A DNA stretch of 64,000 nucleotides. Source: Candidatus Iainarchaeum sp. Its GTDB lineage: Archaea > Iainarchaeota > Iainarchaeia > Iainarchaeales > GCA-2688035. Shown one piece after another: positions 7,831-50,538 of the stretch (within the stretch, counting starts at the first letter, position 1; each line of letters starts with the position of its first letter). The DNA is taken from assembly GCA_017610175.1 (NCBI GenBank), contig JAFCCO010000003.1, positions 16,137-80,136 of the forward strand, in the 5' to 3' direction. The translations under genes and the position numbers were made by a program. The notes under the pieces were generated by a model, which made no database searches, was not told where the DNA came from, and worked only from the letters and a program-made list of their open reading frames with translations.

Positions 7831-7835
7831 TCAAA

Positions 7836-8036
7836 TCAAATCTTATCGATTTCCTTGAATATCTTGTCACTCTTTTCCTGAATCAATTTTGTCCCCTCCT
7901 CGCTTGTTTCACGAAGTTGTGAAACAAAAAGCAGAACAAGGGCTACAACAGCCGCAAGCACAATAATCAATTCAATTGAAATTTGTGCCCTTTCACAGCC
8001 AACAGTTTCCAAAAACATAAAAAGAAACCTGCCCAA
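7836..8036 (-). CDS. Short pilin-like protein
   Basis: Contains 'ERAQISIELIIVLAAVVALVLLF'. It is 66 aa and tandem with 7396..7830. Confidence 0.5.
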   Translation of the reverse strand: MGRFLFMFLETVGCERAQISIELIIVLAAVVALVLLFVSQLRETSEEGTKLIQEKSDKIFKEIDKI

Positions 8037-21826: not shown

Positions 21827-22132
21827 TCAATCTAATTTTGACAGCTTGCCCGGACGCCTTGCGCCCTTGCTTTTTCCAAGGAAAAAATAAAAGAATGCAA
21901 AAATTGAGTGCTCAACAAGGTAAAGCACAACCATCCCTGAAATGAAATAAAATTTGCTTTCCTCCGTAAGGAAATCAAACGTAGGATTTGAAGCCTCAAC
22001 AGACTCCCCTAAAATGGATGTGCGAATCTGGCCCGCAAAATTGAACAGGAAAAATATGACCACAACAGTTACTGCAAAAGCAAGAACTATTGAGAGAAGA
22101 TACTCAAACTGCACCTGAGCACGCGAATCCAT
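21827..22132 (-). CDS. Archaeal type IV pilin-like protein
   Basis: N-terminus 'MDSRAQVQFEYLLSIVLAFAVTVVVIFFLF'. Confidence 0.5.
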   Translation of the reverse strand: MDSRAQVQFEYLLSIVLAFAVTVVVIFFLFNFAGQIRTSILGESVEASNPTFDFLTEESKFYFISGMVVLYLVEHSIFAFFYFFLGKSKGARRPGKLSKLD

Positions 22133-23543: not shown

Positions 23544-25283
23544 ATGAAAAAAATTGACTGGAGCAATGAAGAGGAAAGACACAGGTTCTGGCACAGCAGC
23601 AGCCACGTGCTTGCGGCAGCGGTGAAAAAACTTTATCCCGGCGTTAAGTTTGCAATCGGCCCCCCGATTGAAAACGGATTCTACTACGACTTTGATGTTG
23701 AAAAGCCATTCACTCCGCAAGACCTTAAGAAAATCCAGAAACAGGCAAAGAAGTTTGCAGGCGGAAGCCACAAATTCGAGCACAAGGAAATTGGATTTGC
23801 AGAAGCCGAAAAAATGTTTAAAGACCAGCCATACAAGCTTGAGTTGATTAATGATTTGAAAAATGCAGGCGAGAAAAAATTAAGCATTTATACAAGCGGC
23901 GATTTTGTTGACTTATGCAAGGGACCGCACCTTAAAGGAACCGAAGAAATTAAGGCAATAAAATTGCTGAAGGTTGCAGGCGCATACTGGAAAGGCAGCG
24001 AGAAAAACAAGATGCTGCAGAGAATTTATGGAATTGCATTCCCTGAAAAAGAAATGCTTGAGGTTTGGGTGAAGCAAAGGGAAGAAGCGGCAAAAAGAAA
24101 CCACCTCAAAATAGGAAAAGAACTTGACCTGTTCAGCATGCATGAGGAAAGCCCGGGAATTCCTTTCTTCCACGGCAAAGGAATGGTTGTGTGGAACGAA
24201 CTTGCAAAGCTGTGGAGAGAAGAGCACGCAAAGCGCGGTTATGAGGAATTGAACACCCCAATAATTCTGAAAAAAATCCTGTGGGAACAAAGCGGACACT
24301 GGGACCACTACAAGGAAAACATGTATTTTACAAAAGTAGATGACGAGGATTACGCAATAAAGCCAATGAACTGCCCGGGTGGAATACTGATATTCAAAAC
24401 AGCCAGGCACAGCTACAAGGACTTGCCGATTAGGGCAGGGGAAATGGGAGTGGTTCACAGGCATGAGCTCAGCGGAGTGCTGAACGGGCTGTTTAGGGTT
24501 AGAAAATTCACGCAGGACGACGCACACATATTCTGCACAGAGGAGCAGATTGCACAAGAAATTGTGGGTGTAATAGACCTTGTTGATTTCTTCTACACAA
24601 AAATATTTGGATTCGAATACCACGTTGAACTAAGCACCATGCCTGAAAATGCACTTGGAAGCAAGGAAACATGGGACACTGCAGAGAACGCATTAAAGAA
24701 AGCCATGACCTCGAAGAAAATGAATTTTAAAGTGAACGAGGGAGATGGAGCATTCTACGGGCCAAAAATTGACTTCCACATAAAGGATTCGATGGGAAGG
24801 ACCTGGCAGTGCGCAACAATCCAGCTGGACTTTGCAATGCCTGAAAAGTTCTCGCTTGAATACATTGGGAAGGATGACAAGCCGCACAGGCCAGTAATGA
24901 TTCACAGAGTAGTATATGGAAGCATGGAACGCTTTATGGGAATCCTAATAGAGCACTATGCGGGCGCGTTCCCGCTCTGGCTAAACCCTGTTCAGGTTGC
25001 GATTGTTCCAATTGCCGACAGGCACGCGGATTACGCGGAAAAAGTTGGGGCAGAAATGCTGGACAAGGGAATAAGGGTTGAAGTCGATTCAAGAGGGGAA
25101 AGTGTCGCATACAAAATAAGGCACTGGCAGAAGCTTAAAGCCAACTACATCTTAGTCATTGGAGACAACGAAAAGAAGAACAAGACGGTGAATGTAAGGA
25201 CACGCGATGGAAAAGTCCTTGGCGAAAAGAATGTAAAGGAATTTATTGAAGAAACCATGGAAAAAACCTGCAAAAGGGAATAA
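23544..25283 (+). CDS. thrS: Threonyl-tRNA synthetase (bacterial-type N2 editing, catalytic and anticodon-binding domains; no TGS/N1 domain)
   Basis: 'HSSSHVLAAAV' matches the editing-site HxxxH, class II motifs such as 'FRVRKFTQDDAHIF' are present, and there is a C-terminal anticodon-binding domain. The protein is 579 aa. Confidence 0.9.
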   Translation: MKKIDWSNEEERHRFWHSSSHVLAAAVKKLYPGVKFAIGPPIENGFYYDFDVEKPFTPQDLKKIQKQAKKFAGGSHKFEHKEIGFAEAEKMFKDQPYKLELINDLKNAGEKKLSIYTSGDFVDLCKGPHLKGTEEIKAIKLLKVAGAYWKGSEKNKMLQRIYGIAFPEKEMLEVWVKQREEAAKRNHLKIGKELDLFSMHEESPGIPFFHGKGMVVWNELAKLWREEHAKRGYEELNTPIILKKILWEQSGHWDHYKENMYFTKVDDEDYAIKPMNCPGGILIFKTARHSYKDLPIRAGEMGVVHRHELSGVLNGLFRVRKFTQDDAHIFCTEEQIAQEIVGVIDLVDFFYTKIFGFEYHVELSTMPENALGSKETWDTAENALKKAMTSKKMNFKVNEGDGAFYGPKIDFHIKDSMGRTWQCATIQLDFAMPEKFSLEYIGKDDKPHRPVMIHRVVYGSMERFMGILIEHYAGAFPLWLNPVQVAIVPIADRHADYAEKVGAEMLDKGIRVEVDSRGESVAYKIRHWQKLKANYILVIGDNEKKNKTVNVRTRDGKVLGEKNVKEFIEETMEKTCKRE

Positions 25284-25318
25284 GGCAAAACCCCCTCGGA
25301 AAGGTTTAAATAAAACAA

Positions 25319-27232
25319 TTGCCTTCTTTATCTGATTTTTCTATGCCTAAAACGGATTACTTAAAGGAACTTATGGAGAAAGTGAAGGCGGCTAAAAAAA
25401 AGCAGCCAGTGGAAGCTCCTGAAAAAGAAGAAGAAGCACCAGTAGAGGAATTTGAATCCCCTAAAGACGTACCCGCCCCAATCCAACAAATCGAAAGTAT
25501 TCCAACAGTTTCTGAAAAAGACAAGATTTCACAGGAAATGGAGGATTTGCTTAAGCAGCCCACCCCCCAACCAAAAGCTGTTGCAGAACCGATTCCAGAA
25601 CCTGCGAAAACAGTCCCTGTGGCAGTACCCGAACCAACCCCTGCAACAGCTCCAATTGAAGAGCCTGTTGTCGCAACAAGGGATGAAGTTCAGGCAAAGG
25701 AAAGTGTGGCTGAAGGGGTTGCGGAGATTCCAAAAGAAGAGCCTGTTGAGAAAAAAAGCGAAGCAGAAAAAGACATAGAAAAGGCTGGGAAAAAAATTGA
25801 GGTTGCAAGCTACGGCGATGTAAAAATTTACAAGATTCCCGGAAAGCCACTTCTTTACTACTTTATTCCAGTCCCGCGATCCACTGGGGCGGAAAAAACA
25901 ATAATCAACACAATAAAAGAAGCCGCAACAAGGCTAATCACAATCTCACCCTACAAAATAAGGGAACCAGAGCAAAGAAGGGCGGTTTACAAGCAAAAGA
26001 TTATGGAAATTCTCAGGGGAAGCCCGGAACTGCGGATTCCTGAAAGAAGATTTGAATTTTACACAGATGCTGTTGTAAGGGAAATGGTCGGCTATGGCAT
26101 AATAGACCCGCTTGTAAGGGACGATAAGCTTGAGGAAATTATGGTCATAGGCCCAAAGAAGCCTGTTTACCTATTCCACAGGGATTATGAAATGATGACC
26201 TCAAACATTGAGTTTTACAACGATCAGGAAATTATTGATTTGATAAACAGAATTGCAAGGGAAATAGGTAGAAGGGTTGACATAAGCTCGCCGCTGCTGG
26301 ATGCACGCCTGCCTGACGGCAGCAGGGTCAACGCCACAATCCCCCCGGCTTCCGTCGCAGGTTCAACAATTACAATCAGAAAATTCAGAAAACAGCCATA
26401 CAGCGTAATTGACCTTATTAATATGAACACGCTTTCAGCGGAATGCGCTGCCTTCCTCTGGCTTGCGGTTGAAGGGCTTGGAGTGAAACCGGCAAACGTG
26501 CTGATTGCAGGGGGGACCGGTTCAGGAAAAACCACCCTGCTCAACGTCCTTGCATCATTTGTTCCGGAAAATGAAAGAATTGTCACAATTGAAGACACCG
26601 CCGAATTGAATTTGCCGCTCAAGCACCTAATCCGCATGGAAGCAAGACCGCCTGGGCTTGAGGGAAAGGGTGAACTGACACTGGACATTCTGACAAAAAA
26701 CAGCCTCAGGATGAGACCCGACAGGATATTGGTTGGGGAAATAAGGCACGACGAAGCATTCAGCCTGTTCACCGCAATGAACACAGGCCACGCAGGAAGC
26801 ATGGGAACGGTGCACGCAAACAGCGCGCAGGAAACACTTATCAGAATAAAAAGCCCCCCAATGTCCGTTCCGGAAGTAATGCTCAGCGGACTGGATCTTA
26901 TCCTAATAGAGCACAGAATCCACGACAAGAAAAAGGGAACAATAAGAAGGCTTACTGAAATTGCAGAAGTGACAGGCGTGCTTGTGGGAAAGGCACAAAC
27001 GCAAACAATTTTCGAACGCGACCCTGTGGAAGACTCAATAATCAAAACAAACGTTCCAATAAGCTATCTCAAAGAACTGCAGGACTTTTCCGGATTCAGC
27101 AGAAAGCAAATTGACGCAGAACTCAATGACAGAGCAGCACTGCTAAATACCCTGGTTAAAAAAAATATACACTTAATGGAAGACGTGCACAAAGAAATGC
27201 AAAACTATTTGTTGAAAAAGAAGGAAGCTTAA
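25319..27232 (+). CDS. Type IV pilus/archaellum assembly ATPase (TadA/FlaI/GspE family) with a long disordered N-terminal extension
   Basis: Walker A 'IAGGTGSGKTTLLNVL', 'LIRMEARPPG', Walker B 'RILVGEIR' and His box 'MNTGHAGSMGTVHANS'. The first roughly 160 aa are Pro/Ala/Glu/Val-rich and low complexity. Confidence 0.85.
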   Translation: MPSLSDFSMPKTDYLKELMEKVKAAKKKQPVEAPEKEEEAPVEEFESPKDVPAPIQQIESIPTVSEKDKISQEMEDLLKQPTPQPKAVAEPIPEPAKTVPVAVPEPTPATAPIEEPVVATRDEVQAKESVAEGVAEIPKEEPVEKKSEAEKDIEKAGKKIEVASYGDVKIYKIPGKPLLYYFIPVPRSTGAEKTIINTIKEAATRLITISPYKIREPEQRRAVYKQKIMEILRGSPELRIPERRFEFYTDAVVREMVGYGIIDPLVRDDKLEEIMVIGPKKPVYLFHRDYEMMTSNIEFYNDQEIIDLINRIAREIGRRVDISSPLLDARLPDGSRVNATIPPASVAGSTITIRKFRKQPYSVIDLINMNTLSAECAAFLWLAVEGLGVKPANVLIAGGTGSGKTTLLNVLASFVPENERIVTIEDTAELNLPLKHLIRMEARPPGLEGKGELTLDILTKNSLRMRPDRILVGEIRHDEAFSLFTAMNTGHAGSMGTVHANSAQETLIRIKSPPMSVPEVMLSGLDLILIEHRIHDKKKGTIRRLTEIAEVTGVLVGKAQTQTIFERDPVEDSIIKTNVPISYLKELQDFSGFSRKQIDAELNDRAALLNTLVKKNIHLMEDVHKEMQNYLLKKKEA

Positions 27233-28414
27233 ATGGCAAACCTCAATTTTCTGAAGAAAAAGATTTCCGAAAAAAACAAGCAAAAGAAACAGAACTTAGG
27301 CGAGCCCAAAGACGCAAAAGAAGAAGCCGTGGACATGGACCGCGTTGAACAAATTGTAAAGACAATGAAGAAAAAGTACAAGGAACAGGGAATCGAATTT
27401 GAAGAAGTCGGCGGGAGATTAAGGGAACTGCGCGGAATAATAGCAGAGGGACGCACGGGGGAAATTGAAATACAAAAAGTTGAAGCCCTTCCCGACATGA
27501 AAAATCCAATTGTCAAAACGGTCGGCAATGTTTACATCAAAATGAGAAAAATTTTCGAGCCCATCACAAAGCTCGCAATCAGGCTTCCACAATTTGATAT
27601 GCTTGCATTCTACCTTTATTCCGCAAACATGAGATATTCCGCAAGGCAATATCTTGCATTATCGGTTACAGGCGCGGGAATAATTCTTGCATTTGCATTT
27701 TTTATAATAAGCATTATCATTGCATTGCTTGACATCCCACTAATCACAAAGGTTCTGCTAATTCCGCTTGTGTCAGTGTTTGTATTCTTCTTTTCACTCA
27801 TAGTACTGCTGCTTATTCCAAGCCAAAAGGCAAAAGAAAGGGGCGCTGCAATAAGCATAGAACTTCCGTTTGCACTGCGGCACATGGCAACAGAACTTAG
27901 GGCGGGAATAGGTCTGTACAGGACAATTCAAGCTATTGCCACCGCAGGCTATGGTGCGCTAAGTGAAGAGTTTGCACGCACAATAAACGAAATTGAAGAG
28001 GGGACAGACACAAAAGATGCACTAAGGCACCTTGCACTAAGAACACAAAGCCAGGCACTAAGAAACGCACTCATGCACATAATCAGGGCACTTAAAACAG
28101 GCGGAAACCTAAGCGAAATAATGAACGATATCGCAGAGGATGTTGCATTTGAGCTAAGAATGAGCACAAGGGATTTTGCCGCCAAAATGAACTTTTTTGG
28201 GGTAATATTCATTTTTGCAGCCATAGTAATGCCAGTTATAATTGCCATACTTGGCGGAATAAGAAACAGCCCGATCGGGGAATCAGGGGGAGTAAGCTTT
28301 AAGGACATGCTTCCGCTTGGGCCTGAAGTAATTGCGGGAATATACCTAATACTAATGCCCCTTATGCTGCTCATGTTTATACTGTACATAAAAGCTTCTC
28401 AACCAAAGGTGTAA
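27233..28414 (+). CDS. TadB/TadC (FlaJ)-like polytopic pilus platform protein
   Basis: Cytoplasmic N-domain, then T2SSF-like segments 'LPFALRHMATELRAGIGLYRTIQAIA' and 'ALRHLALRTQSQALRNALMHIIRALKTGGNL', with flanking TM helices. Confidence 0.7.
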   Translation: MANLNFLKKKISEKNKQKKQNLGEPKDAKEEAVDMDRVEQIVKTMKKKYKEQGIEFEEVGGRLRELRGIIAEGRTGEIEIQKVEALPDMKNPIVKTVGNVYIKMRKIFEPITKLAIRLPQFDMLAFYLYSANMRYSARQYLALSVTGAGIILAFAFFIISIIIALLDIPLITKVLLIPLVSVFVFFFSLIVLLLIPSQKAKERGAAISIELPFALRHMATELRAGIGLYRTIQAIATAGYGALSEEFARTINEIEEGTDTKDALRHLALRTQSQALRNALMHIIRALKTGGNLSEIMNDIAEDVAFELRMSTRDFAAKMNFFGVIFIFAAIVMPVIIAILGGIRNSPIGESGGVSFKDMLPLGPEVIAGIYLILMPLMLLMFILYIKASQPKV

Positions 28415-28418
28415 CAAG

Positions 28419-29351
28419 ATGGCTAGACAAAATTTGATTAAAAAACTGCTGGAAAAATACAAGTGGTATTTGAAAAGGGCAGACTTCAATATCCCTGTAG
28501 AAGTCTGGGTGCCGGTTTCGTTCGGCCTGGCAATAGCCTCCGCCGTAATCCTGTTCCTGTTTATTGCCCTGTTAAATTTGCCTGTAAGCCCACTAATGTC
28601 GCTTATAATTTTCCTGGTTGTAGTTGACTTAATGCTTGGATACCCCTACATAAAGGCAACTTCAAGAATTGATGCAATGGAAGCCGCCTTGCCGGATGCA
28701 CTAAAGCAAATGGCGGACACACTCAAAGCAGGCGGAACATACGAATACGCACTGCGTGAAATTGCAACATCACAATACGGGCCGCTTACAAAGGAAATGG
28801 GCCTTGCATTGAGAAAACTAGAGGAGGGTGAAACCCTTGAAAACAGCCTCAAAACTTTTGCAGACAACATAGGGTCAAGGCTAATAAGCAGAAGTGTTGC
28901 GGTAATAATTGACAGCATAAAGGCAGGAGCCGGGCTTGCAACAGTCCTTGATGAAATTGCAGAAGACATAAGGGCAATGCACAGAATAGGGCGTGAAAGA
29001 AGAAGCGGAACCGCCCTCCAAGTAATGTTTATGGTTGCGGCAGGAAGCCTTGTTGCCCCAATAATTCTCGGACTAGTTTCAAGCATAATTGGGCTCTTTA
29101 TTCAGGCTTCAGCAGCACTTGACATAACCGCCGCGCAAAAAGCCCAAGCACTGAGCGTAAAAGACATGATTGTGTTTCTGATGCAATCATACATCCTAGT
29201 TGAGGTAACTGCCTCAGGAGTTATGGTATCTTTAATGCGAAACGGAAACATAAGCAAAAGTATTATATACATCCCTATCCTCTTACTAGTAGCGTATATT
29301 ACATACTATACCTCGTCATTTGTATCAATGATAGCAATTGGAGGAGTTTAA
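28419..29351 (+). CDS. TadB/TadC (FlaJ)-like platform protein, second paralog
   Basis: T2SSF-like repeats 'ALPDALKQMADTLKAGGTYEYALREIA' and 'ATVLDEIAEDIRAMHRIGRERRS', plus TM helices. Confidence 0.7.
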   Translation: MARQNLIKKLLEKYKWYLKRADFNIPVEVWVPVSFGLAIASAVILFLFIALLNLPVSPLMSLIIFLVVVDLMLGYPYIKATSRIDAMEAALPDALKQMADTLKAGGTYEYALREIATSQYGPLTKEMGLALRKLEEGETLENSLKTFADNIGSRLISRSVAVIIDSIKAGAGLATVLDEIAEDIRAMHRIGRERRSGTALQVMFMVAAGSLVAPIILGLVSSIIGLFIQASAALDITAAQKAQALSVKDMIVFLMQSYILVEVTASGVMVSLMRNGNISKSIIYIPILLLVAYITYYTSSFVSMIAIGGV

Positions 29352-29518
29352 TGAATTTTGCAGAGGAAGAAAAAGCCCAGGGTTCAATGGAATACCTCAT
29401 AATATTGGCAGGCACCGTATTTGTAGCGGTTGCAGTAGGATTGTATCTTAAAAGTGTTCCGTCACAAACAGAACACAGAGTAGCTCAAGAAACACATGCA
29501 GCAATTCACGGTTTTTAA
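29351..29518 (+). CDS. Short Flp-like archaeal pilin (class III signal peptide)
   Basis: 'MNFAEEEKAQGSMEYLIILAGTVFVAVAV', 55 aa, with GGAGG-like SD upstream. Confidence 0.55.
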   Translation: MNFAEEEKAQGSMEYLIILAGTVFVAVAVGLYLKSVPSQTEHRVAQETHAAIHGF

Positions 29519-29537
29519 AAAAAATGGAGGAAATAAG

Positions 29538-29714
29538 ATGGATGAAAAAGCACAAGGAGCACTAGAATACCTACTCCTAATAGGAGGCGCAGTACTAGTA
29601 GCAGCAATCGTCCTCACACTCGTCACAGGACTTGCCACAACAGGACAACACACAACACATGTAGGTGGCACAAAGGTCAGTGGCCAGCTAAACGCGCTTA
29701 ATGCACTGTCATAA
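29538..29714 (+). CDS. Short Flp-like archaeal pilin
   Basis: 'MDEKAQGALEYLLLIGGAVLVAAIVLTLV' with SD 'GGAGG'. The first 74 nt are identical to 29746..29819. Confidence 0.6.
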   Translation: MDEKAQGALEYLLLIGGAVLVAAIVLTLVTGLATTGQHTTHVGGTKVSGQLNALNALS

Positions 29715-29745
29715 ATATTATATTAATACGCGGAGGTGCAAAAAA

Positions 29746-29925
29746 ATGGATGAAAAAGCACAAGGAGCACTAGAATACCTACTCCTAATAGGAGGCGCAG
29801 TACTAGTAGCAGCAATCGTAATTGTTCTGCTTTCAGGACTGACAGGTACACCGCTCCACGCAAGCGAACAAGCAAATGCAAAACTGAACATAGGGTACTC
29901 AAGCCTTAACGCCCAGGCAAAATAA
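29746..29925 (+). CDS. Short Flp-like archaeal pilin (tandem duplicate)
   Basis: 'MDEKAQGALEYLLLIGGAVLVAAIVIVLL'. The 5' 74 nt are identical to the upstream copy and the C-termini diverge. Confidence 0.6.
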   Translation: MDEKAQGALEYLLLIGGAVLVAAIVIVLLSGLTGTPLHASEQANAKLNIGYSSLNAQAK

Positions 29926-29951
29926 TTGCCTGGCAAAAAGAGGATCTAAAC

Positions 29952-30107
29952 ATGGACGAAAAGGCTCAGGGGGCAATAGAATACTTGCTTTTGATAGCGG
30001 GAGCAGTGCTAGTAGCAGCAGCAGTTCTTGCATTTATGACATTTATAGTGCCGCAAACAAAGAATACCGCTAATACAAAACTGGTAAATTTCCTCCACGC
30101 CATCTGA
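29952..30107 (+). CDS. Short Flp-like archaeal pilin
   Basis: 'MDEKAQGAIEYLLLIAGAVLVAAAVLAF', 51 aa. It is below the length cut-off of the ORF track. Confidence 0.55.
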   Translation: MDEKAQGAIEYLLLIAGAVLVAAAVLAFMTFIVPQTKNTANTKLVNFLHAI

Positions 30108-30143
30108 GCCAAATTATTTTTACTTAAAAACAAAGGTTTTTGC

Positions 30144-30317
30144 ATGGAAGAAAAAGCACAGGTTGCATTTGAATATCTCTTAACCGCCCTTTTTGGAATA
30201 GTGCTTGCAATATCCGCAGCAATACTGGTTGACACCATAAGGGGAATCTCACTGGTAGCGCAAGGTGAAATACTTGAGTACAGGGATGACACAATTTCTG
30301 CATTGATGCAGGGCTGA
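30144..30317 (+). CDS. Short Flp-like archaeal pilin
   Basis: 'MEEKAQVAFEYLLTALFGIVLAISAAILV', 57 aa. It is not in the ORF track. Confidence 0.5.
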   Translation: MEEKAQVAFEYLLTALFGIVLAISAAILVDTIRGISLVAQGEILEYRDDTISALMQG

Positions 30318-30326
30318 GGTGTTCCA

Positions 30327-31412
30327 ATGCCCTGGAATCAAATTCTCGTTCTCATTTCCATAGCAGGATTAGGGATTGCAACATACACTGATTTAAAGCA
30401 AAGAATGGTTAGGAACTGGCTCACCTATTCCCTTATTGCAGGGGGGCTTGCAGGAAACCTTGTTCTTGCAATAATCGAATCACGCCCCGAAATATTCATA
30501 CTGTCCGCAATAGCAACAGTGTTCGGATTTGGCTTTGCATACCTACTGTGGAAAATGGGCGTGTGGGCCGGAGGAGATGTAAAGCTGTTTACCGGTTTGG
30601 CCGCACTTAACCCGGTTGCCCCGCTTGCATTTGGCTGGATCTCACTATTCCCAATTGCACTTTTTGTGTTCTCCATTTTCGCAGTACTCCCCTACGGAAT
30701 AATTATTGCACTGCACGGCCTGATGAAACGAAATGAAGAAAGGAAGAAAGTAATCAAAGACTCGGCAGTGAAAGTAAAGCAAACAATTCAAATCGGGCTT
30801 GCAATAGTGGGGCTTTCATGGATTCTGGGAATGTTCAACATACCCGCACTAGCCATAATCCCCATATTAATCGTGTTTGGAATGATAAAAAACGCAAAAG
30901 CAATGTGGGCAATTGCCACATTGCTATTTGCGGCAAGTGCATTTAATGCCCCGATTGCAAGCATTACAAATTTCGTTGTAATCTTTGCCCTGTTCTTTGG
31001 ATTCTACCTATTCATAAAACTTTACACAGTATCCAAAATAATCCTGAGGGAAGAGAAAAAAATAAGTGAACTGGAAGAGGGGGACATTCCTGTTGAATCA
31101 ATAATTGAATTGGATGGAAACGTAAAAAGAGTAGCCCCCCTGGAAATAAAAACAATTATTAACTACCTCGCGAATAATAAAGTACAGGAACTGCTGCAAT
31201 TACTGCAGTCAAAAGGGAGGGTGATTGCAAACAACAAGAGAGCAAGAGGGCTTACGGACGAGGAAATAGAAGAGCTCAACGGGCTTGTTAAAAGCAAAAA
31301 GTTGAGCAATCTGCTTCAGGTGAAGCTTTCTGCACCGTTTGTTCCCGCATTGTTAATTGCATATATCACACTTTACTTGATTGGAGATTTTGTATGGGCT
31401 TTGGTCTTATGA
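30327..31412 (+). CDS. Prepilin/preflagellin peptidase (A24 family; PibD/FlaK/TadV-like) with C-terminal extension
   Basis: First catalytic Asp in TM1 ('IATYTDLKQRMVRN') and second Asp in 'WAGGDVKLF', in a polytopic membrane core. A roughly 110-aa charged, coiled-coil-like region and a final TM helix follow the core. Confidence 0.7.
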   Translation: MPWNQILVLISIAGLGIATYTDLKQRMVRNWLTYSLIAGGLAGNLVLAIIESRPEIFILSAIATVFGFGFAYLLWKMGVWAGGDVKLFTGLAALNPVAPLAFGWISLFPIALFVFSIFAVLPYGIIIALHGLMKRNEERKKVIKDSAVKVKQTIQIGLAIVGLSWILGMFNIPALAIIPILIVFGMIKNAKAMWAIATLLFAASAFNAPIASITNFVVIFALFFGFYLFIKLYTVSKIILREEKKISELEEGDIPVESIIELDGNVKRVAPLEIKTIINYLANNKVQELLQLLQSKGRVIANNKRARGLTDEEIEELNGLVKSKKLSNLLQVKLSAPFVPALLIAYITLYLIGDFVWALVL

Positions 31413-31888
31413 AAAACAGGAAAGGACAAATATCTATTGAGTTTATACTCATAATACTCATCGTTCTTGTATACATAACTTCCGTTATTCAGCCAACGGT
31501 AAAAATAGCCACCGAAACAACCTGGGACATTACAAGGCTTTCTGAGACAAAATTTGCAGCACAAAAACTTGCAGCCGCAATAAACCAGCTTGAAGCAAGC
31601 GGCGGAGACGGGAAAAAAACAATAAGCCTGTTTGTCCCAAAAGGCGCGGTGGTTGAATGCACCGGCATAGCATCAATAGACTTCACAGCGTCACTGGGCA
31701 GCTTGTCAGTTCCCCCTGTGTGCGATCCTATTGGAAGGGAATGCGCCGGATCAATTGAACTCGTTTCAGGAATAAGCGGCCTTAACTGTTTTGGAGGAAG
31801 CCCAATTGATGCAAGTGCAAGCAACATCTTTAGAAAAGTTGAAGTTATAAAGGACATAACCGGAATTAGGGTTGCTTATGCCTCTTAA
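31409..31888 (+). CDS. Pilin-like protein with class III signal peptide and a globular C-terminal domain
   Basis: 'MKNRKGQISIEFILIILIVLVYI'. The start overlaps the peptidase stop, and the Cys-containing C-terminal domain is about 130 aa. Confidence 0.5.
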   Translation: MKNRKGQISIEFILIILIVLVYITSVIQPTVKIATETTWDITRLSETKFAAQKLAAAINQLEASGGDGKKTISLFVPKGAVVECTGIASIDFTASLGSLSVPPVCDPIGRECAGSIELVSGISGLNCFGGSPIDASASNIFRKVEVIKDITGIRVAYAS

Positions 31889-32225
31889 CAAAAAAGGGCA
31901 GGTGAGCTTTGAACTGTTAATGCTGACAGCCATCATTTTTGTAACCGCCATCTGGACAAGCGGATACTACCTAGATATAAAGGATTCAACACTGGCAATA
32001 CAATTATCAAAAGCCCAGTCAATTCTGGAAATTGAGGAAGAAGACGACCTCTACACAATTGAAAAAATAGAATTTGTGGAAGTAACGAACGAACAAATAG
32101 ATATTACAGTAAGATTCTGCCCGGACTCAACAATTGATTTTGATGAAGGGGCGCTTGCAACGAAGATAACACAAAACACAAAGTACACCACCGCAAACAT
32201 TGGAGTGGTGGACGGCTCCTGCTAA
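31872..32225 (+). CDS. Pilin-like protein (class III signal peptide)
   Basis: 'MLMPLNKKGQVSFELLMLTAIIFVTAIW'. The gene overlaps its upstream neighbour. Confidence 0.45.
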   Translation: MLMPLNKKGQVSFELLMLTAIIFVTAIWTSGYYLDIKDSTLAIQLSKAQSILEIEEEDDLYTIEKIEFVEVTNEQIDITVRFCPDSTIDFDEGALATKITQNTKYTTANIGVVDGSC

Positions 32226-32258
32226 ACGTTCTTCGACGAAAAGAAAACCTGTTTTTAA

Positions 32259-32645
32259 TTGTTTTTCAAACAAGCACATGCTATGCTTAAAGAAAGACAC
32301 CTCGCAGCCACTGCCGCTTTGATTGCAGTGTGCGGCATTGCACTAATAGCAGCAGCAAACGCATTGGTCGAATACAAAGAAACAAGCATTGCGGAAATTG
32401 ATGGCGGCAGCATAGGAAAAAGAGTACTGGTTTTTGGGCACATTGAGTGGGCTCTGCAAAAAGACAACTTTGTTCTGCTCACACTAAACGACGGGGCAAA
32501 AATAAAAGTAGTAGCTTTCTCTCCGACTAAAGAAGAGCGGGCAATTCTTGCACGCGGAGCATATGTCTCAGTCAAGGGAACAGTGAAACAATACAAAAAC
32601 GAGATTGAAATTGTCGCAGAGGAAGTGAATGAGTGGAAGGGATAA
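32259..32645 (+). CDS. Membrane-anchored OB-fold-like protein
   Basis: An N-terminal TM ('LAATAALIAVCGIALIAAANAL') is followed by 'RVLVFGHIEWALQKDNFVLLTLNDGAKIKVVAF...YVSVKGTVKQYKNEIEIVAEEV', which reads as beta-rich, possibly OB-like. Confidence 0.35.
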   Translation: MFFKQAHAMLKERHLAATAALIAVCGIALIAAANALVEYKETSIAEIDGGSIGKRVLVFGHIEWALQKDNFVLLTLNDGAKIKVVAFSPTKEERAILARGAYVSVKGTVKQYKNEIEIVAEEVNEWKG

Positions 32646-33835
32646 TGCTGGCCGTGGTTGCGGGCTGCATTATTGGAACTGTAACAGGGCTGGTTCCCGG
32701 ATTGCATGTGAACACAGTTGCAGTGCTTGCAGTCTCCATTCTCAGAGAAAACGCAGGCTTTGAAACCGTAATATTAATCGCAAGTGCGGGCATCGTGCAC
32801 ACCTTCCTTGATTTTATCCCAAGCATCTGCCTGGGCGCACCAAGCGATGAAAGCTTTCTGTCAGTACTGCCAGGACAACGATTTTTTCTCAAAGGAAAAG
32901 GCCATTACGCGGTGTCACTAACTGTTTGGGGTGGGCTGGCAGCAGGAACTATGGCAATTGCATTTGCCCCCCTGTTCATAAAGTTTGTGCAAGCAAATGT
33001 CACAACCATAAACTCAATTCTGCCTTTTGTGCTGCTGTCTGTCATCGCACTAATGGTTTTTGACGAAAAGGGATTTAAAAGAAAAGGCATTGCACTCACT
33101 GTTGTAGTTTTTTCCGCAGTGTTGGGGGTTGTGGTGTTGCGCGAGACAAGCATTGTGAAAAACCCTCTTTTGCCGCTCGTTTCAGGCTTCTTTGGAGCCG
33201 CACCCCTGCTTCACACAATAAAAAGCAAGCCAATTGCAAGAAAACAAGTGACTGAATTTGTTAAAACACGTTTCGCGCTGGTTTCAAAAAACTCAGCAAT
33301 TGGATTGGCTGGAGCGGCATTTGTCTCACTCTTCCCCGGAATCGGGCCAAGCCAAGCCGCACTCACCATAAAAACAACAGCCGGAAAAATTAAGGCAAAT
33401 GAATACCTTGTTGTACTGGGTGGAATAAATACTGCAAACATGCTTTTTTCAATCGCAGCACTCTATGCAATCGGAACAACAAGAACGGGAATTGCCGCAG
33501 CAATAAAGCAAGTTATTGAATTGGATTCAGTGCACTTGCCATCCCTTGCAGGCGCATCACTTGCAGCAATCGCATTCGGTGCAATTGCAACAATTATTAT
33601 TTCAAAAAAATTCATTAATGTAATTTCCGGCATTGAATATGCACGAATCAACGAAACCGTGCTGGTGATTCTTACCGCAAGCGTTTTTATGCTCTCCAAT
33701 TTCCCGGGGATGATTGCATTTGCAAGCGCAACCGCAATAGGCTTTGCGGCAATTTCACTCAAAGTCAAAAGAAGTAATTGTATGGCCTTCCTTATGGTGC
33801 CTGCAATCCTTCAGTACACAAGTCTATTCATTTGA
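32633..33835 (+). CDS. TctA-like (DUF112) polytopic membrane protein
   Basis: Duplicated Gly/Pro-rich half-motifs ('GTVTGLVPGLHVNTVAV' and 'FVSLFPGIGPSQAALT') in a protein of about 11 TM segments. Confidence 0.45.
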   Translation: MEGIMLAVVAGCIIGTVTGLVPGLHVNTVAVLAVSILRENAGFETVILIASAGIVHTFLDFIPSICLGAPSDESFLSVLPGQRFFLKGKGHYAVSLTVWGGLAAGTMAIAFAPLFIKFVQANVTTINSILPFVLLSVIALMVFDEKGFKRKGIALTVVVFSAVLGVVVLRETSIVKNPLLPLVSGFFGAAPLLHTIKSKPIARKQVTEFVKTRFALVSKNSAIGLAGAAFVSLFPGIGPSQAALTIKTTAGKIKANEYLVVLGGINTANMLFSIAALYAIGTTRTGIAAAIKQVIELDSVHLPSLAGASLAAIAFGAIATIIISKKFINVISGIEYARINETVLVILTASVFMLSNFPGMIAFASATAIGFAAISLKVKRSNCMAFLMVPAILQYTSLFI

Positions 33836-33846
33836 CTGCAAATGAC

Positions 33847-34386
33847 TTAATGCTTAACCCCAACAACCAATTGGTTGCCGCCAAACAAGAATTGCCTACT
33901 CTTTACCACGTCGAAACCAGCACTCTCAATTATTGAGACAAGATCGTCAATTGAAAAAATATTTTTATGGTCTTGAGCGTCGTGAGCCGATGTCAAACCC
34001 AATTTTGCAAGGTAATGATGCAAAGCATTTCCCGCTTTAGATGGAGTGGTGACAACCAACACCCCTTTCTTGTTAAGACAGGCATAAAGATTTAACAGAA
34101 GTGAATTACAATCAGATACGTGTTCAATAACCGCCAGGAGGGCAATCGAATCAAACTTACCCAAGTCAGACAGATTATTCAAAGCACTGCGCCTAAAAAA
34201 AGAAAAATCGTCTGCCGGTTGCTGCAGCACATCAATTCCAACATATTTAGAGGAGTCAGCCAAATAATGCCTCAACCCCCCTTGTCTGCACCCAACATCC
34301 AAAACCTTTCCGCTCAGAAAGGATTTAGCTATCTTAAACCTCTGCTTTTCAAGAAATCCACTTAACATGCCCCGTTTCCTCGCCAT
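33847..34386 (-). CDS. Class I SAM-dependent methyltransferase
   Basis: Motif I 'VLDVGCRQGG', a post-I acidic residue ('IDV') and motif II 'FDSIALLAVIEHV'. Confidence 0.6.
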   Translation of the reverse strand: MARKRGMLSGFLEKQRFKIAKSFLSGKVLDVGCRQGGLRHYLADSSKYVGIDVLQQPADDFSFFRRSALNNLSDLGKFDSIALLAVIEHVSDCNSLLLNLYACLNKKGVLVVTTPSKAGNALHHYLAKLGLTSAHDAQDHKNIFSIDDLVSIIESAGFDVVKSRQFLFGGNQLVVGVKH

Positions 34387-34407
34387 CCCAGATCACAACA
34401 CGCGCAA

Positions 34408-35289
34408 TTATTTTGATTTAGTACTCATATCTGCCAGAAAGCCAAAAAGGATTACCTGCAACCCTGAAATCAGCAGAAGAAGCATTAACAAAAGCAGTCC
34501 TGTGTGCCCCTGGATCCCGCTAGTAAAATGGAGAAAAGTAAAATATAAACCAAGAACAAAACCTGTTGCGAACAATGCAGCTCCAATAGAGCCAAAAAAT
34601 TTAAGCGGCGCAAAATCGCGGTATACGCGAAGCAGGTTAATGCCCGCCCTTACTGCATATTCCAGTGGATGTGCAATGAGTCTGCTCTCGTCATTGCGCT
34701 TTGCAAAATAAGCGGGAATTTCGACTACTGCAAAATTGTTTCGCACAGCACGCACCACTTGCTCTTGAGTATAAGTGTGGTTGGAAATTATTGCAAGCCG
34801 GGCTATGTCTGTATTAAATGCCCTAAACCCTGTTTGCGGGTCCGTTATCTTCCTGTGAACAATCTGAGAAATTACTTTTGCAAACGCAATATTTCCAAGT
34901 CTCTTAAGAAAAGGCATCTGCTCGATTGTCCCCAAAAACCTGCTTCCCAATACAAGATCGTTTCCCTCCTTCATCTTCTCAAGCAAGGAAGGAATTTCAT
35001 CGGCACGGTATTGCAAATCAGCATCAATATGAACAATAGCATCGGCGTTAAGCTTGAGCACCTGTTGCATTTCAGTGCGAAAAGTTGATGCAAGGCCCAT
35101 ATTACGCCTGTGGCTGAAGACCTTCGCTCCTGCGGCCCTTGCAAGGCTTGCCGTGCGGTCTGTGGACCCGTCATCAACAACCAGAATAGAAAAGTCGGTT
35201 CCCGACATCGCATCCTTAATTTCTGCAATTTGCCGGGATATTGTGCCTTCTTCATTAAAAGCCGGTATTGACACAACAATTTGTCCCAA
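34408..35289 (-). CDS. Family 2 glycosyltransferase (dolichyl-phosphate sugar synthase-like) with C-terminal TM helices
   Basis: 'VVSIPAFNEEGTI', 'VVDDGSTDRT' and 'HIDADLQ' (DxD) are present, and two C-terminal hydrophobic helices match the Dpm1/GtrB-like topology. Confidence 0.75.
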   Translation of the reverse strand: MGQIVVSIPAFNEEGTISRQIAEIKDAMSGTDFSILVVDDGSTDRTASLARAAGAKVFSHRRNMGLASTFRTEMQQVLKLNADAIVHIDADLQYRADEIPSLLEKMKEGNDLVLGSRFLGTIEQMPFLKRLGNIAFAKVISQIVHRKITDPQTGFRAFNTDIARLAIISNHTYTQEQVVRAVRNNFAVVEIPAYFAKRNDESRLIAHPLEYAVRAGINLLRVYRDFAPLKFFGSIGAALFATGFVLGLYFTFLHFTSGIQGHTGLLLLMLLLLISGLQVILFGFLADMSTKSK

Positions 35290-35362
35290 AGAGATCCCCT
35301 ATAAATTATAACCCAACAAGTATTAATAAGTTTAGTTTAGAAGACAATTAGGTGTTGATTTT

Positions 35363-37120
35363 TTGTTTGGGCTTTTGCTAACAATCATTATTTACACGCT
35401 TCCGGGATTTCTTATTTTGGAATGCTTCAAATTCAAGGGAGCAAACAAAATTCTGCTTGGAACCGCGGTCTCCCTTGCAGTGACCCCAGCCATTATGTAC
35501 AGCCTATCGCTCGTGGTGCCGATTAACACAGTTGCAGTCACATTGTACTCCCTTGCCCTGCTTGCACTTGCCTATTCAAAAAGAAAATCCCTTAGACTCG
35601 AATTGGGGGCAATCCTTCAGACTCACACACCAAGCAACGCTTTGGAAAAAACCGCTCTTGTCCTTATGTTTGCTATAATTACAGTCATTAGCACATACCT
35701 TATTTTGGCGCCACCTGTTTACTGGGACGACCTCACATACCATGTGCCCTTAATTAATGATTTTGCAGAAGATGGGCAATTTGAAACCTATGCGCAGCCA
35801 AAAAATGACTTCGAGCTTCGATCAAATCGCTATCCCCTTCTCTTTGAAACAGCAGTCGGCATCCCAAAAATGCTTTCCCCTTTCCCTGCATGGAAACTTG
35901 TGCCAGCCATTGCATTTGCTCTCGCAGCATACACCATATTTCTTCTCTCCAAGGAAGCCAAAAAACCCACTGTCTGGGGGGCGGTGCTGTTTGTTTCAAC
36001 CATTGAAATCCTATGGCACTCCGCCGCCTCATTCTATGTCGACATCTACCTGAGCATGCTTATTGCGGGAGCGGTGTATTTTGCACTAAGATTCTTAAAG
36101 GAACGTCAGAAAGCCCTTCTCTTCGCAAGCAGCTTGTTCATTGGAACCGCAATACTTACAAAATTTACAGGAATAATTTTTGCAGCCCTGCTCATTGCCT
36201 TCATCGCCTTTAAAACCAGAAAAATAAAAACAGGCCTTTGCGCCGCACTAAGTGCACTGGCGGTAAGCGCAGCATATGCAGTAAGTCAGCTGCTGAGTTA
36301 CGGCTTTAACACAAATGTTGGCATAGCAAACTATGGCACAATTTCAGAAAATGGAATTGCCCACTCTTTTTTGAGGAATATTTCAATGACTGCATCAATA
36401 CTGGGAAACTTTTTGCTAACATTTAGGTTTTCACCGGTAGTGCTGGTTTTATTTGCTGCATCGATTGTAAAAAATCGCAAAAACACTCAGGCTCTTTTAA
36501 ACCACGCAACGCTTTTGCTGGGAATCGGTTTCTTGTTGGCAACATTTTTTTCAAAGGCATTCCCCACCCCCACCGGCCTGCCAAGATACCTGTTTCCAAT
36601 TTATGGGCTTTCATGCGCTTCGGCTGGAGCTTACATAACCTCAATAGACAGAGGGTTGATGAAAAAAATCGTAATGGCAATGGCTCTTGTGAGTATACTG
36701 CTTGGGTTCTTTGTCATTGTTGACGAGTTTGGCCCAAAAATTGAATATTACAGTGCACAAGGCCCAGAATTGTCATCAGGGGGAATGCCAATTCCAAATG
36801 AAAAAGGGATTCGTGTTTTTTTCCCAATTTCCAATGCTTTTGTCCTAGGGCTTGAAAAAACAGACCTACGTGACTTTCAGTCCTACAAACATATTGACTC
36901 AAATGTGTGTCGCTTTCTAACGGAGCAAGAAATAGACTATGTTGTTCTAGCGGCATTTGACCTGTGGAAAAGTGAAACAACACGCTTTGGAACTACACGC
37001 CTTGGTGTCACGAAAGTCGAATTTGTAAAAAATCTTGAGATTGAAATGGAAAAAAAGGGCTGCATAGAAATTATCGGTGGGCAAAATAGGTTTACTACAA
37101 CACTAAAGGTAAGGAGATAG
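35363..37120 (+). CDS. Large polytopic membrane protein, putative GT-C type glycosyltransferase (ArnT/PMT-like)
   Basis: 585 aa with about 12 TM helices. An early extracytoplasmic loop carries an acidic 'WDDLTYHVPLINDFAEDG' motif reminiscent of GT39/83 DE motifs. It is adjacent to the GT2 gene. Confidence 0.4.
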   Translation: MFGLLLTIIIYTLPGFLILECFKFKGANKILLGTAVSLAVTPAIMYSLSLVVPINTVAVTLYSLALLALAYSKRKSLRLELGAILQTHTPSNALEKTALVLMFAIITVISTYLILAPPVYWDDLTYHVPLINDFAEDGQFETYAQPKNDFELRSNRYPLLFETAVGIPKMLSPFPAWKLVPAIAFALAAYTIFLLSKEAKKPTVWGAVLFVSTIEILWHSAASFYVDIYLSMLIAGAVYFALRFLKERQKALLFASSLFIGTAILTKFTGIIFAALLIAFIAFKTRKIKTGLCAALSALAVSAAYAVSQLLSYGFNTNVGIANYGTISENGIAHSFLRNISMTASILGNFLLTFRFSPVVLVLFAASIVKNRKNTQALLNHATLLLGIGFLLATFFSKAFPTPTGLPRYLFPIYGLSCASAGAYITSIDRGLMKKIVMAMALVSILLGFFVIVDEFGPKIEYYSAQGPELSSGGMPIPNEKGIRVFFPISNAFVLGLEKTDLRDFQSYKHIDSNVCRFLTEQEIDYVVLAAFDLWKSETTRFGTTRLGVTKVEFVKNLEIEMEKKGCIEIIGGQNRFTTTLKVRR

Positions 37121-39041: not shown

Positions 39042-39446
39042 ATGAAACGCGGCCAAGTTAGCTTTGACTTTATCCTTGCAGTAATCGTTGCACTGGTTTT
39101 CATTTCAGGCCTGCAGCTTCTCAATACAGAAATACAGCAAACACAGAAATTTGCAGCAGTGAGAAACCAGGAAAAGGCAATTGCCCTGCAGGTTCACGGA
39201 ATAATTTCAACCGCGAAAATTCTTGACGAAGCGGGTGCAATTGTAGACATAGAATATGAAACTGTAAAAATGCTTGTCCCAGGGGAAGCAATACTAAGCG
39301 GCTGCACAATAGACCTGCAAAACAAACAAGTGATATACAATCTTAATGGAACAAATGTAGTTACGAACATCCCGGATTTTGATGCAGGCAATTTAATAAT
39401 CCCAAACCAGGTTGACTGCGGGGACATGTTATCAATAACAAAATGA
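39042..39446 (+). CDS. Pilin-like protein (class III signal peptide)
   Basis: 'MKRGQVSFDFILAVIVALVFISGL' with an RG|Q site. Confidence 0.5.
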   Translation: MKRGQVSFDFILAVIVALVFISGLQLLNTEIQQTQKFAAVRNQEKAIALQVHGIISTAKILDEAGAIVDIEYETVKMLVPGEAILSGCTIDLQNKQVIYNLNGTNVVTNIPDFDAGNLIIPNQVDCGDMLSITK

Positions 39447-39946
39447 TTGGATTGATTGAATTGAACAAAAAAGGGCAGATATTTTCACTGGATTTTCTAA
39501 TTTCATTGATAGCGGTAACACTCGCGATAGGGCTGTTGCTGCAAATGAGCGAGCTAAAGGCTTACAATGAAAAAGAGGAAGCCGCATGGCAAAAATTAAA
39601 GCAGCTGGGTGAAACCGCTTCAAGGCTCCTTGTAAACAACCCGGACATAATATGCGACGTTGACAACGGCGCAAGCGATTTTGTCATAAGCAACTGCATT
39701 GACTCAACAAAAACAATTAACAGGGCAGCCCTTGGTCTGCCTTTAGATATTGGGTTTTCAGTTAAAAGCCACGGCCCTGTTCCAGCCATAGATGAAAGCT
39801 CCGGTGCCCGCGGAGTGGATGCCGACTATTACTCGGTTAAGAGAACAGTTGTTGTAAACAACAGCCAGGTTTCAAAAGCAAATTACCTCAATCAGACATT
39901 CACAGAGGGTCCGTATGAAATAGTTTTGGCGGTGTGGAAAGAATGA
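39443..39946 (+). CDS. Pilin-like protein (class III signal peptide)
   Basis: 'MIGLIELNKKGQIFSLDFLISLIAVTLAIGLLL'. The start overlaps the upstream stop. Confidence 0.5.
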   Translation: MIGLIELNKKGQIFSLDFLISLIAVTLAIGLLLQMSELKAYNEKEEAAWQKLKQLGETASRLLVNNPDIICDVDNGASDFVISNCIDSTKTINRAALGLPLDIGFSVKSHGPVPAIDESSGARGVDADYYSVKRTVVVNNSQVSKANYLNQTFTEGPYEIVLAVWKE

Positions 39947-40257
39947 ATAGAGGGTTTATCTTTACCATAGACGCGGCACTTAGCCTGATTTCAGTAATGA
40001 TACTTGCGCTTCTCTTTACTTCCTACTTTGATACCGCGGAACCAAAAACAGATTTATACGAAAAGGTGGAAATCAAAGCAAGCGATGCGGCAATTGTTGG
40101 AAACCACCTTAACCGGGACGCAGTTGGAATGGGTGTTTCCGCAAGTATGCCTGCAAACAGTGAATTTGTTGCATGCCGCAAGTCATACAGGTTTAATGCA
40201 GGATCCCCAACATCTGTTACTGAAAACAAATATTGCGTGGGGTCGGCGACGCCATGA
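39934..40257 (+). CDS. Pilin-like protein (class III signal peptide)
   Basis: 'MERMNRGFIFTIDAALSLISVMILALLF'. Overlaps its upstream neighbour. Confidence 0.45.
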   Translation: MERMNRGFIFTIDAALSLISVMILALLFTSYFDTAEPKTDLYEKVEIKASDAAIVGNHLNRDAVGMGVSASMPANSEFVACRKSYRFNAGSPTSVTENKYCVGSATP

Positions 40258-50464: not shown

Positions 50465-50538
50465 AGGCATCTGGAAATCACAACCAGTATTATAAACACC
50501 ATTTACATATATAAATAAGTTTTGATAGAGTTGATTGC

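Follow-up and report, generated by a model that had tools for sequence, protein, structure and literature searches.

What does a Tad-like type IV pilus do for a small-genome archaeon when its operon ends in a gene pair whose candidate counterparts are needed for natural transformation in a methanogen? The question is raised by a locus at 25.3-33.8 kb in a 64,000-nucleotide stretch of DNA from Candidatus Iainarchaeum sp. (contig JAFCCO010000003.1), the whole of which is called the window here. An earlier note, made from the sequence alone, had described positions 25319-33835 as a complete co-directional Tad-like type IV pilus locus, and all the parts that it listed were present where it had placed them. 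Its functional proposal, an adhesion pilus for host attachment, was not the best supported one, because OB-fold and TctA-like proteins, of which those of the locus are candidate counterparts, are needed for transformation in Methanococcus maripaludis. Our best reading, with a probability of roughly 0.55, is that a competence-type Epd-like pilus and a candidate DNA-import module, the natural-transformation pair, are encoded together in one operon; for a role of this locus in DNA uptake, taken by itself, we consider the chances to be about even.

The block is a single operon of an Iainarchaeota/Diapherotrites-type DPANN archaeon, the phylum Iainarchaeota being placed in the DPANN kingdom Nanobdellati. 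It comprised 14 genes, all on the + strand and with five overlapping gene pairs; the intergenic gaps were of at most 36 nucleotides (nt) across the operon and at most 57 nt up to the OB gene, and the OB and TctA-like genes overlapped by 1 nt. The short pilin genes formed a DNA repeat family with a spacing of 175-208 nt, GGAGG-like sites were found 6-10 nt upstream of most of them, and the full gene order was kept in relatives whose ATPase was 64-70% identical, which together argue that the locus is not due to chance. The two genes on which the DNA-import proposal turns are the last ones of the operon:

32283..32645, + strand: single-transmembrane (TM) OB-fold protein of the nucleic-acid-binding type (PF01336, E 1.5e-7; mechanical open reading frame (ORF) from 32259)
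32645..33835, + strand: TctA-like polytopic membrane protein of 396 amino acids (aa) (PF01970, E 2.6e-38, 132 bits, model positions 1-422 of 423)

The OB gene likely starts at the ATG at 32283, since homologues align from that internal Met, and the TctA-like gene at the ATG at 32645 (public record P0121), which overlaps the OB stop codon as TAATG. The plan conserved in the OB family is a short basic N-terminal stretch, then a single TM helix, then an OB domain of about 90 aa. In the window protein the helix spans residues 13-39, with a positive net charge before it and a negative one after it, so that the predicted topology is N-terminus in and OB domain outside. PF01336 was matched by 41 of the 41 family members, and the nearest solved relatives of the family profile were the single-stranded DNA (ssDNA) binders RPA32, Stn1, YhaM and ExoVII large subunit. 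The model of the OB protein built without an alignment had a pLDDT of 50 and was not used for fold search; its topology was beta1-3/alpha/beta4-5. The AF2 model of the TctA-like protein had a pLDDT of 90 and a pTM of 0.88, and by analogy we regard this protein as a candidate DNA importer.

The analogy is with a transposon screen in M. maripaludis JJ directed at natural transformation (Fonseca et al. 2023; PMC10133366), in which in-frame deletion of either MMJJ_13020, a single-TM OB-fold nucleic-acid-binding protein, or MMJJ_13030, which is TctA-like and has 11 TM helices, abolished transformation, and complementation worked. A TctA homologue was essential for transformation in Methanoculleus thermophilus too, and the same screen caught epdA, eppA and epdJ/K/L, the Epd pilus being required for transformation; because archaea lack ComEC, the authors proposed the TctA-like protein as a DNA transporter (PMC10133366). 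The window pair had the same Pfam families, sizes and order as these two genes, that is, a single-TM PF01336 OB protein followed directly by a PF01970 TctA-like protein of about 400 aa, with coupled stop and start codons. The stop of MMJJ_13020 abuts the start of MMJJ_13030 (TAA directly followed by ATG, as read from primer DF1-226), as against TAATG in the window. The primer-derived N-terminus of MMJJ_13030, M-INNLFFLIF, is followed by a codon fragment GG-, hence a Gly, which falls on the invariant G11 of a 25-sequence alignment, and its primer-derived C-terminus, TILYFLKI, fits the PTIL[FY][YF]L motif of the window family. The window OB and TctA-like proteins are therein candidate counterparts of MMJJ_13020 and MMJJ_13030. 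The two cases differ in that the window pair lies within a pilus operon and in that the window side is known from sequence only; that the window proteins act as those of M. maripaludis do is what we infer by analogy.

To follow the linkage of the pair to pilus genes, a TctA-like alignment was run against the GTDB species representatives, and the 80 loci obtained were annotated by phmmer and jackhmmer. Of the 73 loci with room for it, 32 had the OB gene immediately upstream of the TctA gene and in the same orientation, and 45 had it within 10 kb. The metagenomic relatives L001 and L003 and other Iainarchaeota (L006-L009, L014, L022 and L023) also had the full order of pilus, OB and TctA genes, and in L011 it ran up to the contig end; the pilus-linked position of the pair was kept in at least 10 Iainarchaeota genomes. 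Three Iainarchaeota loci (L010, L012 and L013) lacked the upstream pilus core and had pilin-like genes downstream. In Hydrothermarchaeota, one operon of L004 and L005 held the ATPase, two platform genes and an ORF of short-pilin size, and in L018, L038 and L081 the A24 peptidase, three to four pilin-like genes, a protein of about 245 aa, OB and TctA were grouped apart from the ATPase/platform operon. The conserved protein of about 245 aa, encoded between the minor-pilin and OB genes (L018 5327-6073, L038 8906-9634 and L081 8903-9658), has no counterpart in the window.

An unbiased search of the neighbours of the OB-TctA pair across the 80 genomes gave no recurrent nuclease, DprA-like or HhH gene; the recurrent neighbours were housekeeping genes only, plus pilin-like genes in Iainarchaeota. 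The pair is a widespread archaeal module which at least two lineages have put beside pilus genes. The operon linkage of a pilus with OB and TctA genes was unmentioned in the literature searched, including the 2016 and 2026 censuses of archaeal pili, and neither census mentioned a TctA-like component. What goes beyond the literature searched is the operonic fusion of the pilus with the transformation-associated OB/TctA pair, recurring in Iainarchaeota and Hydrothermarchaeota.

Several observations weigh against a DNA-uptake pilus. On one Hydrothermarchaeota contig of 706 kb some 250 kb separated the ATPase operon from the TctA gene, which stood by itself with no OB gene upstream. In most other DPANN (Woesearchaeota, Pacearchaeota and Nanoarchaeia) no pilus gene occurred within 10 kb of the OB-TctA pair, and its neighbours were housekeeping genes, judged from their N-terminal sequences to resemble those for PolD, a tRNA synthetase and Lon; since the pair occurs elsewhere without pilus genes nearby, the linkage is lineage-specific. 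Orthology to MMJJ_13020/13030 is judged from shared Pfam families, from architecture and adjacency, and from some 8-10 terminal residues read in primers, and the best 120 matches of the window or Hydrothermarchaeota query contained no named Methanococcus TctA, being only DPANN, Hydrothermarchaeota and metagenome proteins. The window ORFs of at least 110 aa were scanned, and nuclease, DprA-like and MinD/FleN genes, which had also come up in the transformation screen, were not found among them. The TctA-like model had no close solved fold, its weak fold neighbours being secondary transporters and not channels. The piliation of the OB/TctA mutants was not examined in M. maripaludis (PMC10133366), so that the effect on transformation could be indirect. 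Finally, Tad pili act as adhesins, and in M. maripaludis Epd pili contribute to attaching the cell.

This last point belongs to the alternative that the pilus serves purely for adhesion or host attachment and that the OB and TctA-like genes are an unrelated transporter pair at the end of the operon. DPANN pilus loci have been discussed as candidates for host interaction (PMC11291902), and the frequent occurrence of the pair away from pilus genes is also in its favour. Such an unrelated pair would nevertheless have to be reconciled with its coupling to the pilus genes by the small gaps and overlaps given above, with the position that it has kept in Iainarchaeota, with its joining the peptidase and minor pilins in another phylum, and with the requirement of pilus, OB and TctA-like proteins, each of them, for transformation in M. 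maripaludis (PMC10133366). There is, moreover, no TctB or TctC in the window to act as partner of a tricarboxylate transporter. We hold this alternative to be rather unlikely. A tricarboxylate transporter as such was rejected on the lack of both partners in the window and on the gene context, which is a pilus operon.

Alternatively, the OB and TctA-like proteins may be factors of pilus biogenesis or anchoring, acting in pilin handling, platform stabilisation or energisation, and transformation would then be lost through failure of the pilus. The specific clustering of the pair with the prepilin peptidase and minor pilins in Iainarchaeota and Hydrothermarchaeota would fit this well, as would the gap in the mutant phenotypes just mentioned and a TctA-like fold that resembles a transporter and not a DNA pore. 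On the other hand, the OB domain is of the nucleic-acid-binding class throughout the family, with ssDNA binders as its nearest solved relatives, and the pair is widespread in DPANN in non-pilus contexts. The reviewed pilus genetics of M. maripaludis do not report the pair as needed for piliation, which is absence of evidence only. A biogenesis role seems to us quite unlikely, and the competence-type pilus with its candidate import pair is retained as the preferred reading.

The type of the pilus was judged from its core genes, of which the first ones, with their candidate promoter element, are:

25305..25312, + strand: candidate archaeal TATA box TTTAAATA, read from the sequence, inside the 35-nt spacer between the threonyl-tRNA synthetase (ThrRS) gene and the ATPase gene; putative role
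25343..27232, + strand: pilus assembly ATPase of the CpaF/TadA/EpdL type (T2SSE, E 6e-48; mechanical ORF from TTG 25319)
27233..28414, + strand: platform protein 1, 393 aa (one T2SSF domain, E 5e-20; UpsF model positions 37-253 of 484)
28419..29351, + strand: platform protein 2, 310 aa (one T2SSF domain, E 7e-16; ArlJ 195-458 of 465; UpsF 266-437 of 484)

The public record of the ATPase (P0001) has 629 aa and begins at the ATG at 25343, for which reason the mechanical TTG start at 25319 is probably unused; the box TTTAAATA lies 31 nt upstream of this ATG. The gene starts of the ATPase, OB and TctA-like genes are thus placed at their likely positions, and further pilin-like genes lie beyond the interval of the earlier note. 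Among solved structures the ATPase matched CpaF best (260 bits), followed by afGspE, the Archaeoglobus GspE (230), and FlaI (205); with NCBIfam it reached 299 bits on the FlaI model (cut-off 550) and 242 bits on the TadA model (cut-off 373). Its homologues are labelled 'CpaF family' or 'TadA' in the sources and many of them 'flagellar protein FlaI' at JGI. The gene of platform protein 1 starts without a gap after the ATPase gene. The earlier note had seen a TadA/FlaI-family ATPase and two separate platform proteins in place of one fused FlaJ, and both points held. The platform proteins are paralogues (29% identity, E 1e-20), protein 1 corresponding to the N-terminal half and protein 2 to the C-terminal half of fused FlaJ/UpsF-type models, as would be expected if a FlaJ-like gene had undergone fission.

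The N-terminal 160 or so residues of the ATPase (window 25343-25830) are of low complexity, rich in E, P, K and A, and probably disordered. The Hydrothermarchaeota homologues have about 1050 aa and an additional PF23989 domain, and inteins (PF14528/PF14890) were found in several Iainarchaeota homologues.

These features agree with a known type of archaeal pilus. In Clade 1 of Makarova et al. 2016 the ATPase is of the CpaF family (arCOG01819), there are two TadC-like genes, the peptidase is a long-form EppA (arCOG02300) and the major pilins have about 70 aa. Split platform and short pilins define the Epd-like/Tad clade of Denise et al. 2019 (PMC6668835), who argued that bacterial Tad comes from such an archaeal system, and the census of Sivabalasarma & Albers 2026 (bioRxiv 10.64898/2026.04.22.720090) records "System 1" in methanogens, Thermococcales and DPANN. 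We are highly confident that the window pilus belongs to this Epd-like, System 1 or Clade 1 type, sister of bacterial Tad. This type had been known before, in DPANN too, and CpaF/TadA is its routine annotation. The locus type given by the earlier note therefore stood. Its archaeal setting is no oddity: on the view that Tad derives from an archaeal Epd-like lineage, it is in archaea that a Tad-like pilus is ancestral.

The window shares with the Epd pilus of M. maripaludis the CpaF-family ATPase, a platform encoded by two genes of one T2SSF domain each (EpdJ/EpdK-like), an A24 peptidase of the long form belonging to the system, major pilins that are very short and have no globular domain, a pilin Q at +1 and several minor pilins. 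It differs in that the M. maripaludis genes are scattered (epdJKL; an eppA/epdA cluster; the stand-alone major pilin epdE; the OB/TctA pair), the transformation genes lying at three or more loci as judged by the locus tags 0828x, 1056x-1058x and 1302x-1303x, whereas the window has one operon; its pilins are, in addition, tandemly amplified. A FleN/MinD (TadZ-like) ATPase and a DUF2341 adhesin were not found among the scanned window ORFs; FleN/MinD usually stands alone in other archaea, and the gene may therefore sit outside the 64 kb. With bacterial Tad/Flp the window has in common CpaF as the nearest solved ATPase, the split platform, one ATPase in the locus and helix-only pilins of about 50 aa with E5-Y6 after the cleavage site. 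Unlike bacterial Tad/Flp, its pilins are outside the Flp Pfam family and would be cleaved after K-A or K-G with Q at +1, its peptidase has an archaeal C-terminal domain, and its platform genes are in the order N-half then C-half; no domains of the secretin RcpA/CpaC, TadZ, TadD or TadE/F/G were found in the locus or the scanned window ORFs.

An archaellum locus for motility, or a degenerate form of it, is extremely improbable and was rejected: FlaI is the top NCBIfam match of the ATPase and a frequent label of its homologues, and the platform proteins weakly match the ArlJ/FlaJ models, but these scores are far under the curated cut-offs (for the ArlJ models at most 65 against 400-570), CpaF beats FlaI among solved structures, the platform is split, the filament proteins have 51-59 aa against about 200 aa in archaellins, and, as the earlier note had said, archaellin (FlaB) and the accessory genes FlaC-H were not found among the scanned ORFs. 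The outcome that the note had named as refuting its reading, archaellum-type scores together with archaellins, was not obtained in the window.

The pilins and the prepilin peptidase follow the platform genes:

29351..29518, + strand: short pilin 1, 55 aa (cleavage predicted between EEKA and QGSMEY; Class_IIIsignal E 9e-6; GGAGG upstream)
29538..29714, + strand: short pilin 2, 58 aa (cleavage between MDEKA and QGALEY; Class_IIIsignal E 4.5e-7; reference copy of repeat family D1)
29746..29925, + strand: short pilin 3, 59 aa (Class_IIIsignal E 4e-7; 88% DNA identity to pilin 2 over 101 nt)
29952..30107, + strand: short pilin 4, 51 aa (Class_IIIsignal E 1.2e-6)
30144..30317, + strand: short pilin 5, 57 aa (cleavage between MEEKA and QVAFEY; Class_IIIsignal E 0.14, weak; K(-2), Q(+1) and E(+5) kept)
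30327..31412, + strand: prepilin peptidase, 361 aa, long form (Peptidase_A24 1e-12; Arc_PepC 6e-13)
31409..31888, + strand: larger pilin-like protein 1, 159 aa from MKNRKG, with QISIEF after the cleavage site (ORF 164 aa; Class_IIIsignal E 8e-7)
31878..32225, + strand: larger pilin-like protein 2, 115 aa from MPLNKKG, with QVSFEL after the cleavage site (ORF 117 aa; Class_IIIsignal E 1e-3, below the Pfam cut-off)

The earlier note had called the short ones five Flp-like class III pilins of 51-59 aa. Size and motif were borne out, four of the five being over the cut-off of the Pfam Class_IIIsignal family (PF04021); membership of the Pfam Flp family was not, as none of the five matched Flp_Fap at E values up to 10. 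No sequence match of the short pilins was found among solved structures. In the alignment K(-2), Q(+1) and E(+5) were invariant across all seven class III proteins, the short pilins having K-A-Q-x-x-x-E-Y. Cleavage is accordingly predicted from the sequence to follow K-A in the case of the short pilins and K-G in that of the larger ones, with leaders of 5-9 residues, and the mature short pilins are predicted to have 46-54 aa and the N-terminus Q-x-x-x-E-Y. Short pilin 2 is likely a major pilin, and the 88% DNA identity that pilin 3 has to it over 101 nt indicates that pilin 3 arose by recent tandem duplication; relatives carry four short pilins against five in the window. Short pilin 5, at whose position an ORF of 56-57 aa was also found in L001 and L003, is divergent and probably a minor pilin. 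The larger pilin-like proteins, recognised as such by the earlier note, are probable minor pilins; the first one is conserved in Iainarchaeota and Hydrothermarchaeota loci and the second one in Iainarchaeota loci.

In the strings TDLKQR and GGDVKLF, from which the peptidase had been identified as A24, lie the two Asp residues that correspond in the alignment to the catalytic pair of FlaK (PDB 3S0X). The protein reached 41 bits on the EppA equivalog model (cut-off 450) and 35 bits on the FlaK model, far under its cut-off. With the pilins outside the Flp Pfam family and the peptidase far from the EppA equivalog, membership of the Epd-like group is at the level of system type and does not amount to orthology to the M. 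maripaludis proteins.

Taken together, the parts suggest the following working. The A24/EppA-type peptidase would cut a leader of 5-9 residues after K-[A/G] and leave Q at +1 and E at +5 on the seven pilins. A hexameric ATPase of the CpaF-like kind, seated on the split TadB/TadC-like platform, would assemble a thin filament from the five helix-only pilins of 46-54 aa, and the same ATPase would probably also retract it; the two larger minor pilins may prime or cap the filament. The filament would catch extracellular DNA and bring it to the membrane, where the anchored OB protein, presumably facing outward, would bind the DNA. The TctA-like polytopic protein would take part in the import, possibly as the conduit itself. 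The imported DNA could be a source of nucleotides and genes for an archaeon with a reduced genome, the nutritional role being conjectural. A stronger proposal, towards which we are somewhat sceptical, is that the OB/TctA-like pair is an archaeal DNA import apparatus that forms a physical unit with an Epd-like pilus and has been fixed in the operons of Iainarchaeota and some Hydrothermarchaeota.

This scheme resembles bacterial competence, in which a Com pilus or type IV pilus is combined with ComEA and ComEC, in having a retractile filament, a membrane-anchored extracellular DNA binder and a polytopic importer. The DNA-handling parts are without homology, the OB protein not being ComEA (HhH) and the TctA-like protein not being ComEC, so that the likeness is one of analogy only. 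An OB fold is also present in ComEC.

Archaea have no ComEC homologue, and on how DNA passes their membrane the one lead to date comes from a methanogen, in which a genetic screen pointed to a TctA-like protein and an OB-fold partner. The fusion of such a pair to a pilus operon gives independent comparative support to a functional partnership, from the phylogenetically distant DPANN and from the related Hydrothermarchaeota block. Pili of small-genome archaea may then serve DNA acquisition or nucleotide scavenging besides attachment, and, if the stronger proposal holds, the uncultured small-genome archaea concerned would be naturally competent, with a pilus-driven uptake of DNA for nucleotides and genes. 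Competence in uncultured archaea could then be predicted from a compact gene signature, and the roughly 14 genes would form a natural minimal set for structural studies or reconstitution.

The surroundings of the operon are archaeal, with genes for Nre, RFC small subunit, an ABCE1-like protein, Cdc6, CDC48, aRF1 and HerA/NurA/Rad50, and for the ATPase and the TctA-like protein the nearest relatives with a name were "Candidatus Diapherotrites", Iainarchaeum and archaeon GW2011_AR10. The ThrRS gene immediately upstream (23544-25283) reached 703 bits on the bacterial-type thrS model TIGR00418 against 202 bits on the archaeal-type model, and the order Nre, ThrRS, pilus operon was common to the relatives L001 and L003. 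A scan for bacterial sigma-70 promoters and terminators yielded no more than shuffled sequence, the model being bacterial and not relevant to an archaeon. The operon ends at 33835 and the next gene, for a methyltransferase, is convergent.

Downstream of the operon, further genes are probably the distal part of the same pilus system, as candidates only:

39042-39446, 39443-39946, 39934-40257 and 40233-40748, + strand: four overlapping candidate pilin-like genes, with N-termini of [KR]G plus a hydrophobic stretch

Their homologues were found 2-4.5 kb downstream of TctA and on the same strand in the Iainarchaeota loci L006-L014 and L022; in the window, glycosylation genes, a JAB-domain gene and an iPGM gene are inserted between TctA and these genes. 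A Pfam scan of three of the four (39042-39446, 39443-39946 and 40233-40748) gave no match.

Glycosylation genes beside pilus loci were seen in the window (33847-37120), in L003 (12703-14184), in L004 (17001-18659 and 21249-21962) and in L005 (17105-19394). Those of both Iainarchaeota and Hydrothermarchaeota included GT2 and a PMT_2/PTPS_related GT-C-type membrane glycosyltransferase, the window adding a methyltransferase, and they hint at glycosylation of pilins or of surface proteins.

A second T2SSE ATPase of 547 aa is encoded at 48929-50572 on the - strand, with 44% identity over 390 aa to the operon ATPase. It stands alone, its neighbours being genes for a LigT-like phosphoesterase and a CCA-adding enzyme with no adjoining platform or pilin gene, and it could drive a second filament or share the operon platform, for example in retraction.

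Other pilin-like ORFs of the window, all on the - strand, carry the [KR]-A-Q-x-x-x-E motif of the operon pilins:

7396-7830, - strand: 144 aa, MARA followed by QASIEYLLLL
7836-8018, - strand: 60 aa, ..CERA followed by QISIELIIVL (Class_IIIsignal E 0.003; weak Flp1_like match, 0.028)
21827-22132, - strand: 101 aa, MDSRA followed by QVQFEYLLS (no Pfam match)

Four consecutive + strand ORFs of 175, 118, 151 and 143 aa at 5781-7461 had no Pfam match, and several of them had pilin-like N-termini (MKNRG followed by QLQLEATICIAL, and MPITNKG followed by FALSADTAL). A second pilin gene cluster is suggested by their position facing the two - strand pilin-like genes of 7396-8018. An M50-family peptidase gene (8053-8700, + strand) adjoins these - strand genes; the M50 peptidase gene MMJJ_13210 had also come up in the M. 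maripaludis transformation screen, and the link between the two may be a coincidence.

The window also encodes a set for DNA end resection, namely a Mre11-like metallophosphoesterase, a Rad50-like SMC_N ATPase, HerA (DUF87) and NurA (47174-47809, 52817-54880, 56957-58507 and 58528-59685), as well as a Holliday-junction-resolvase-like endonuclease at 43651-44010.

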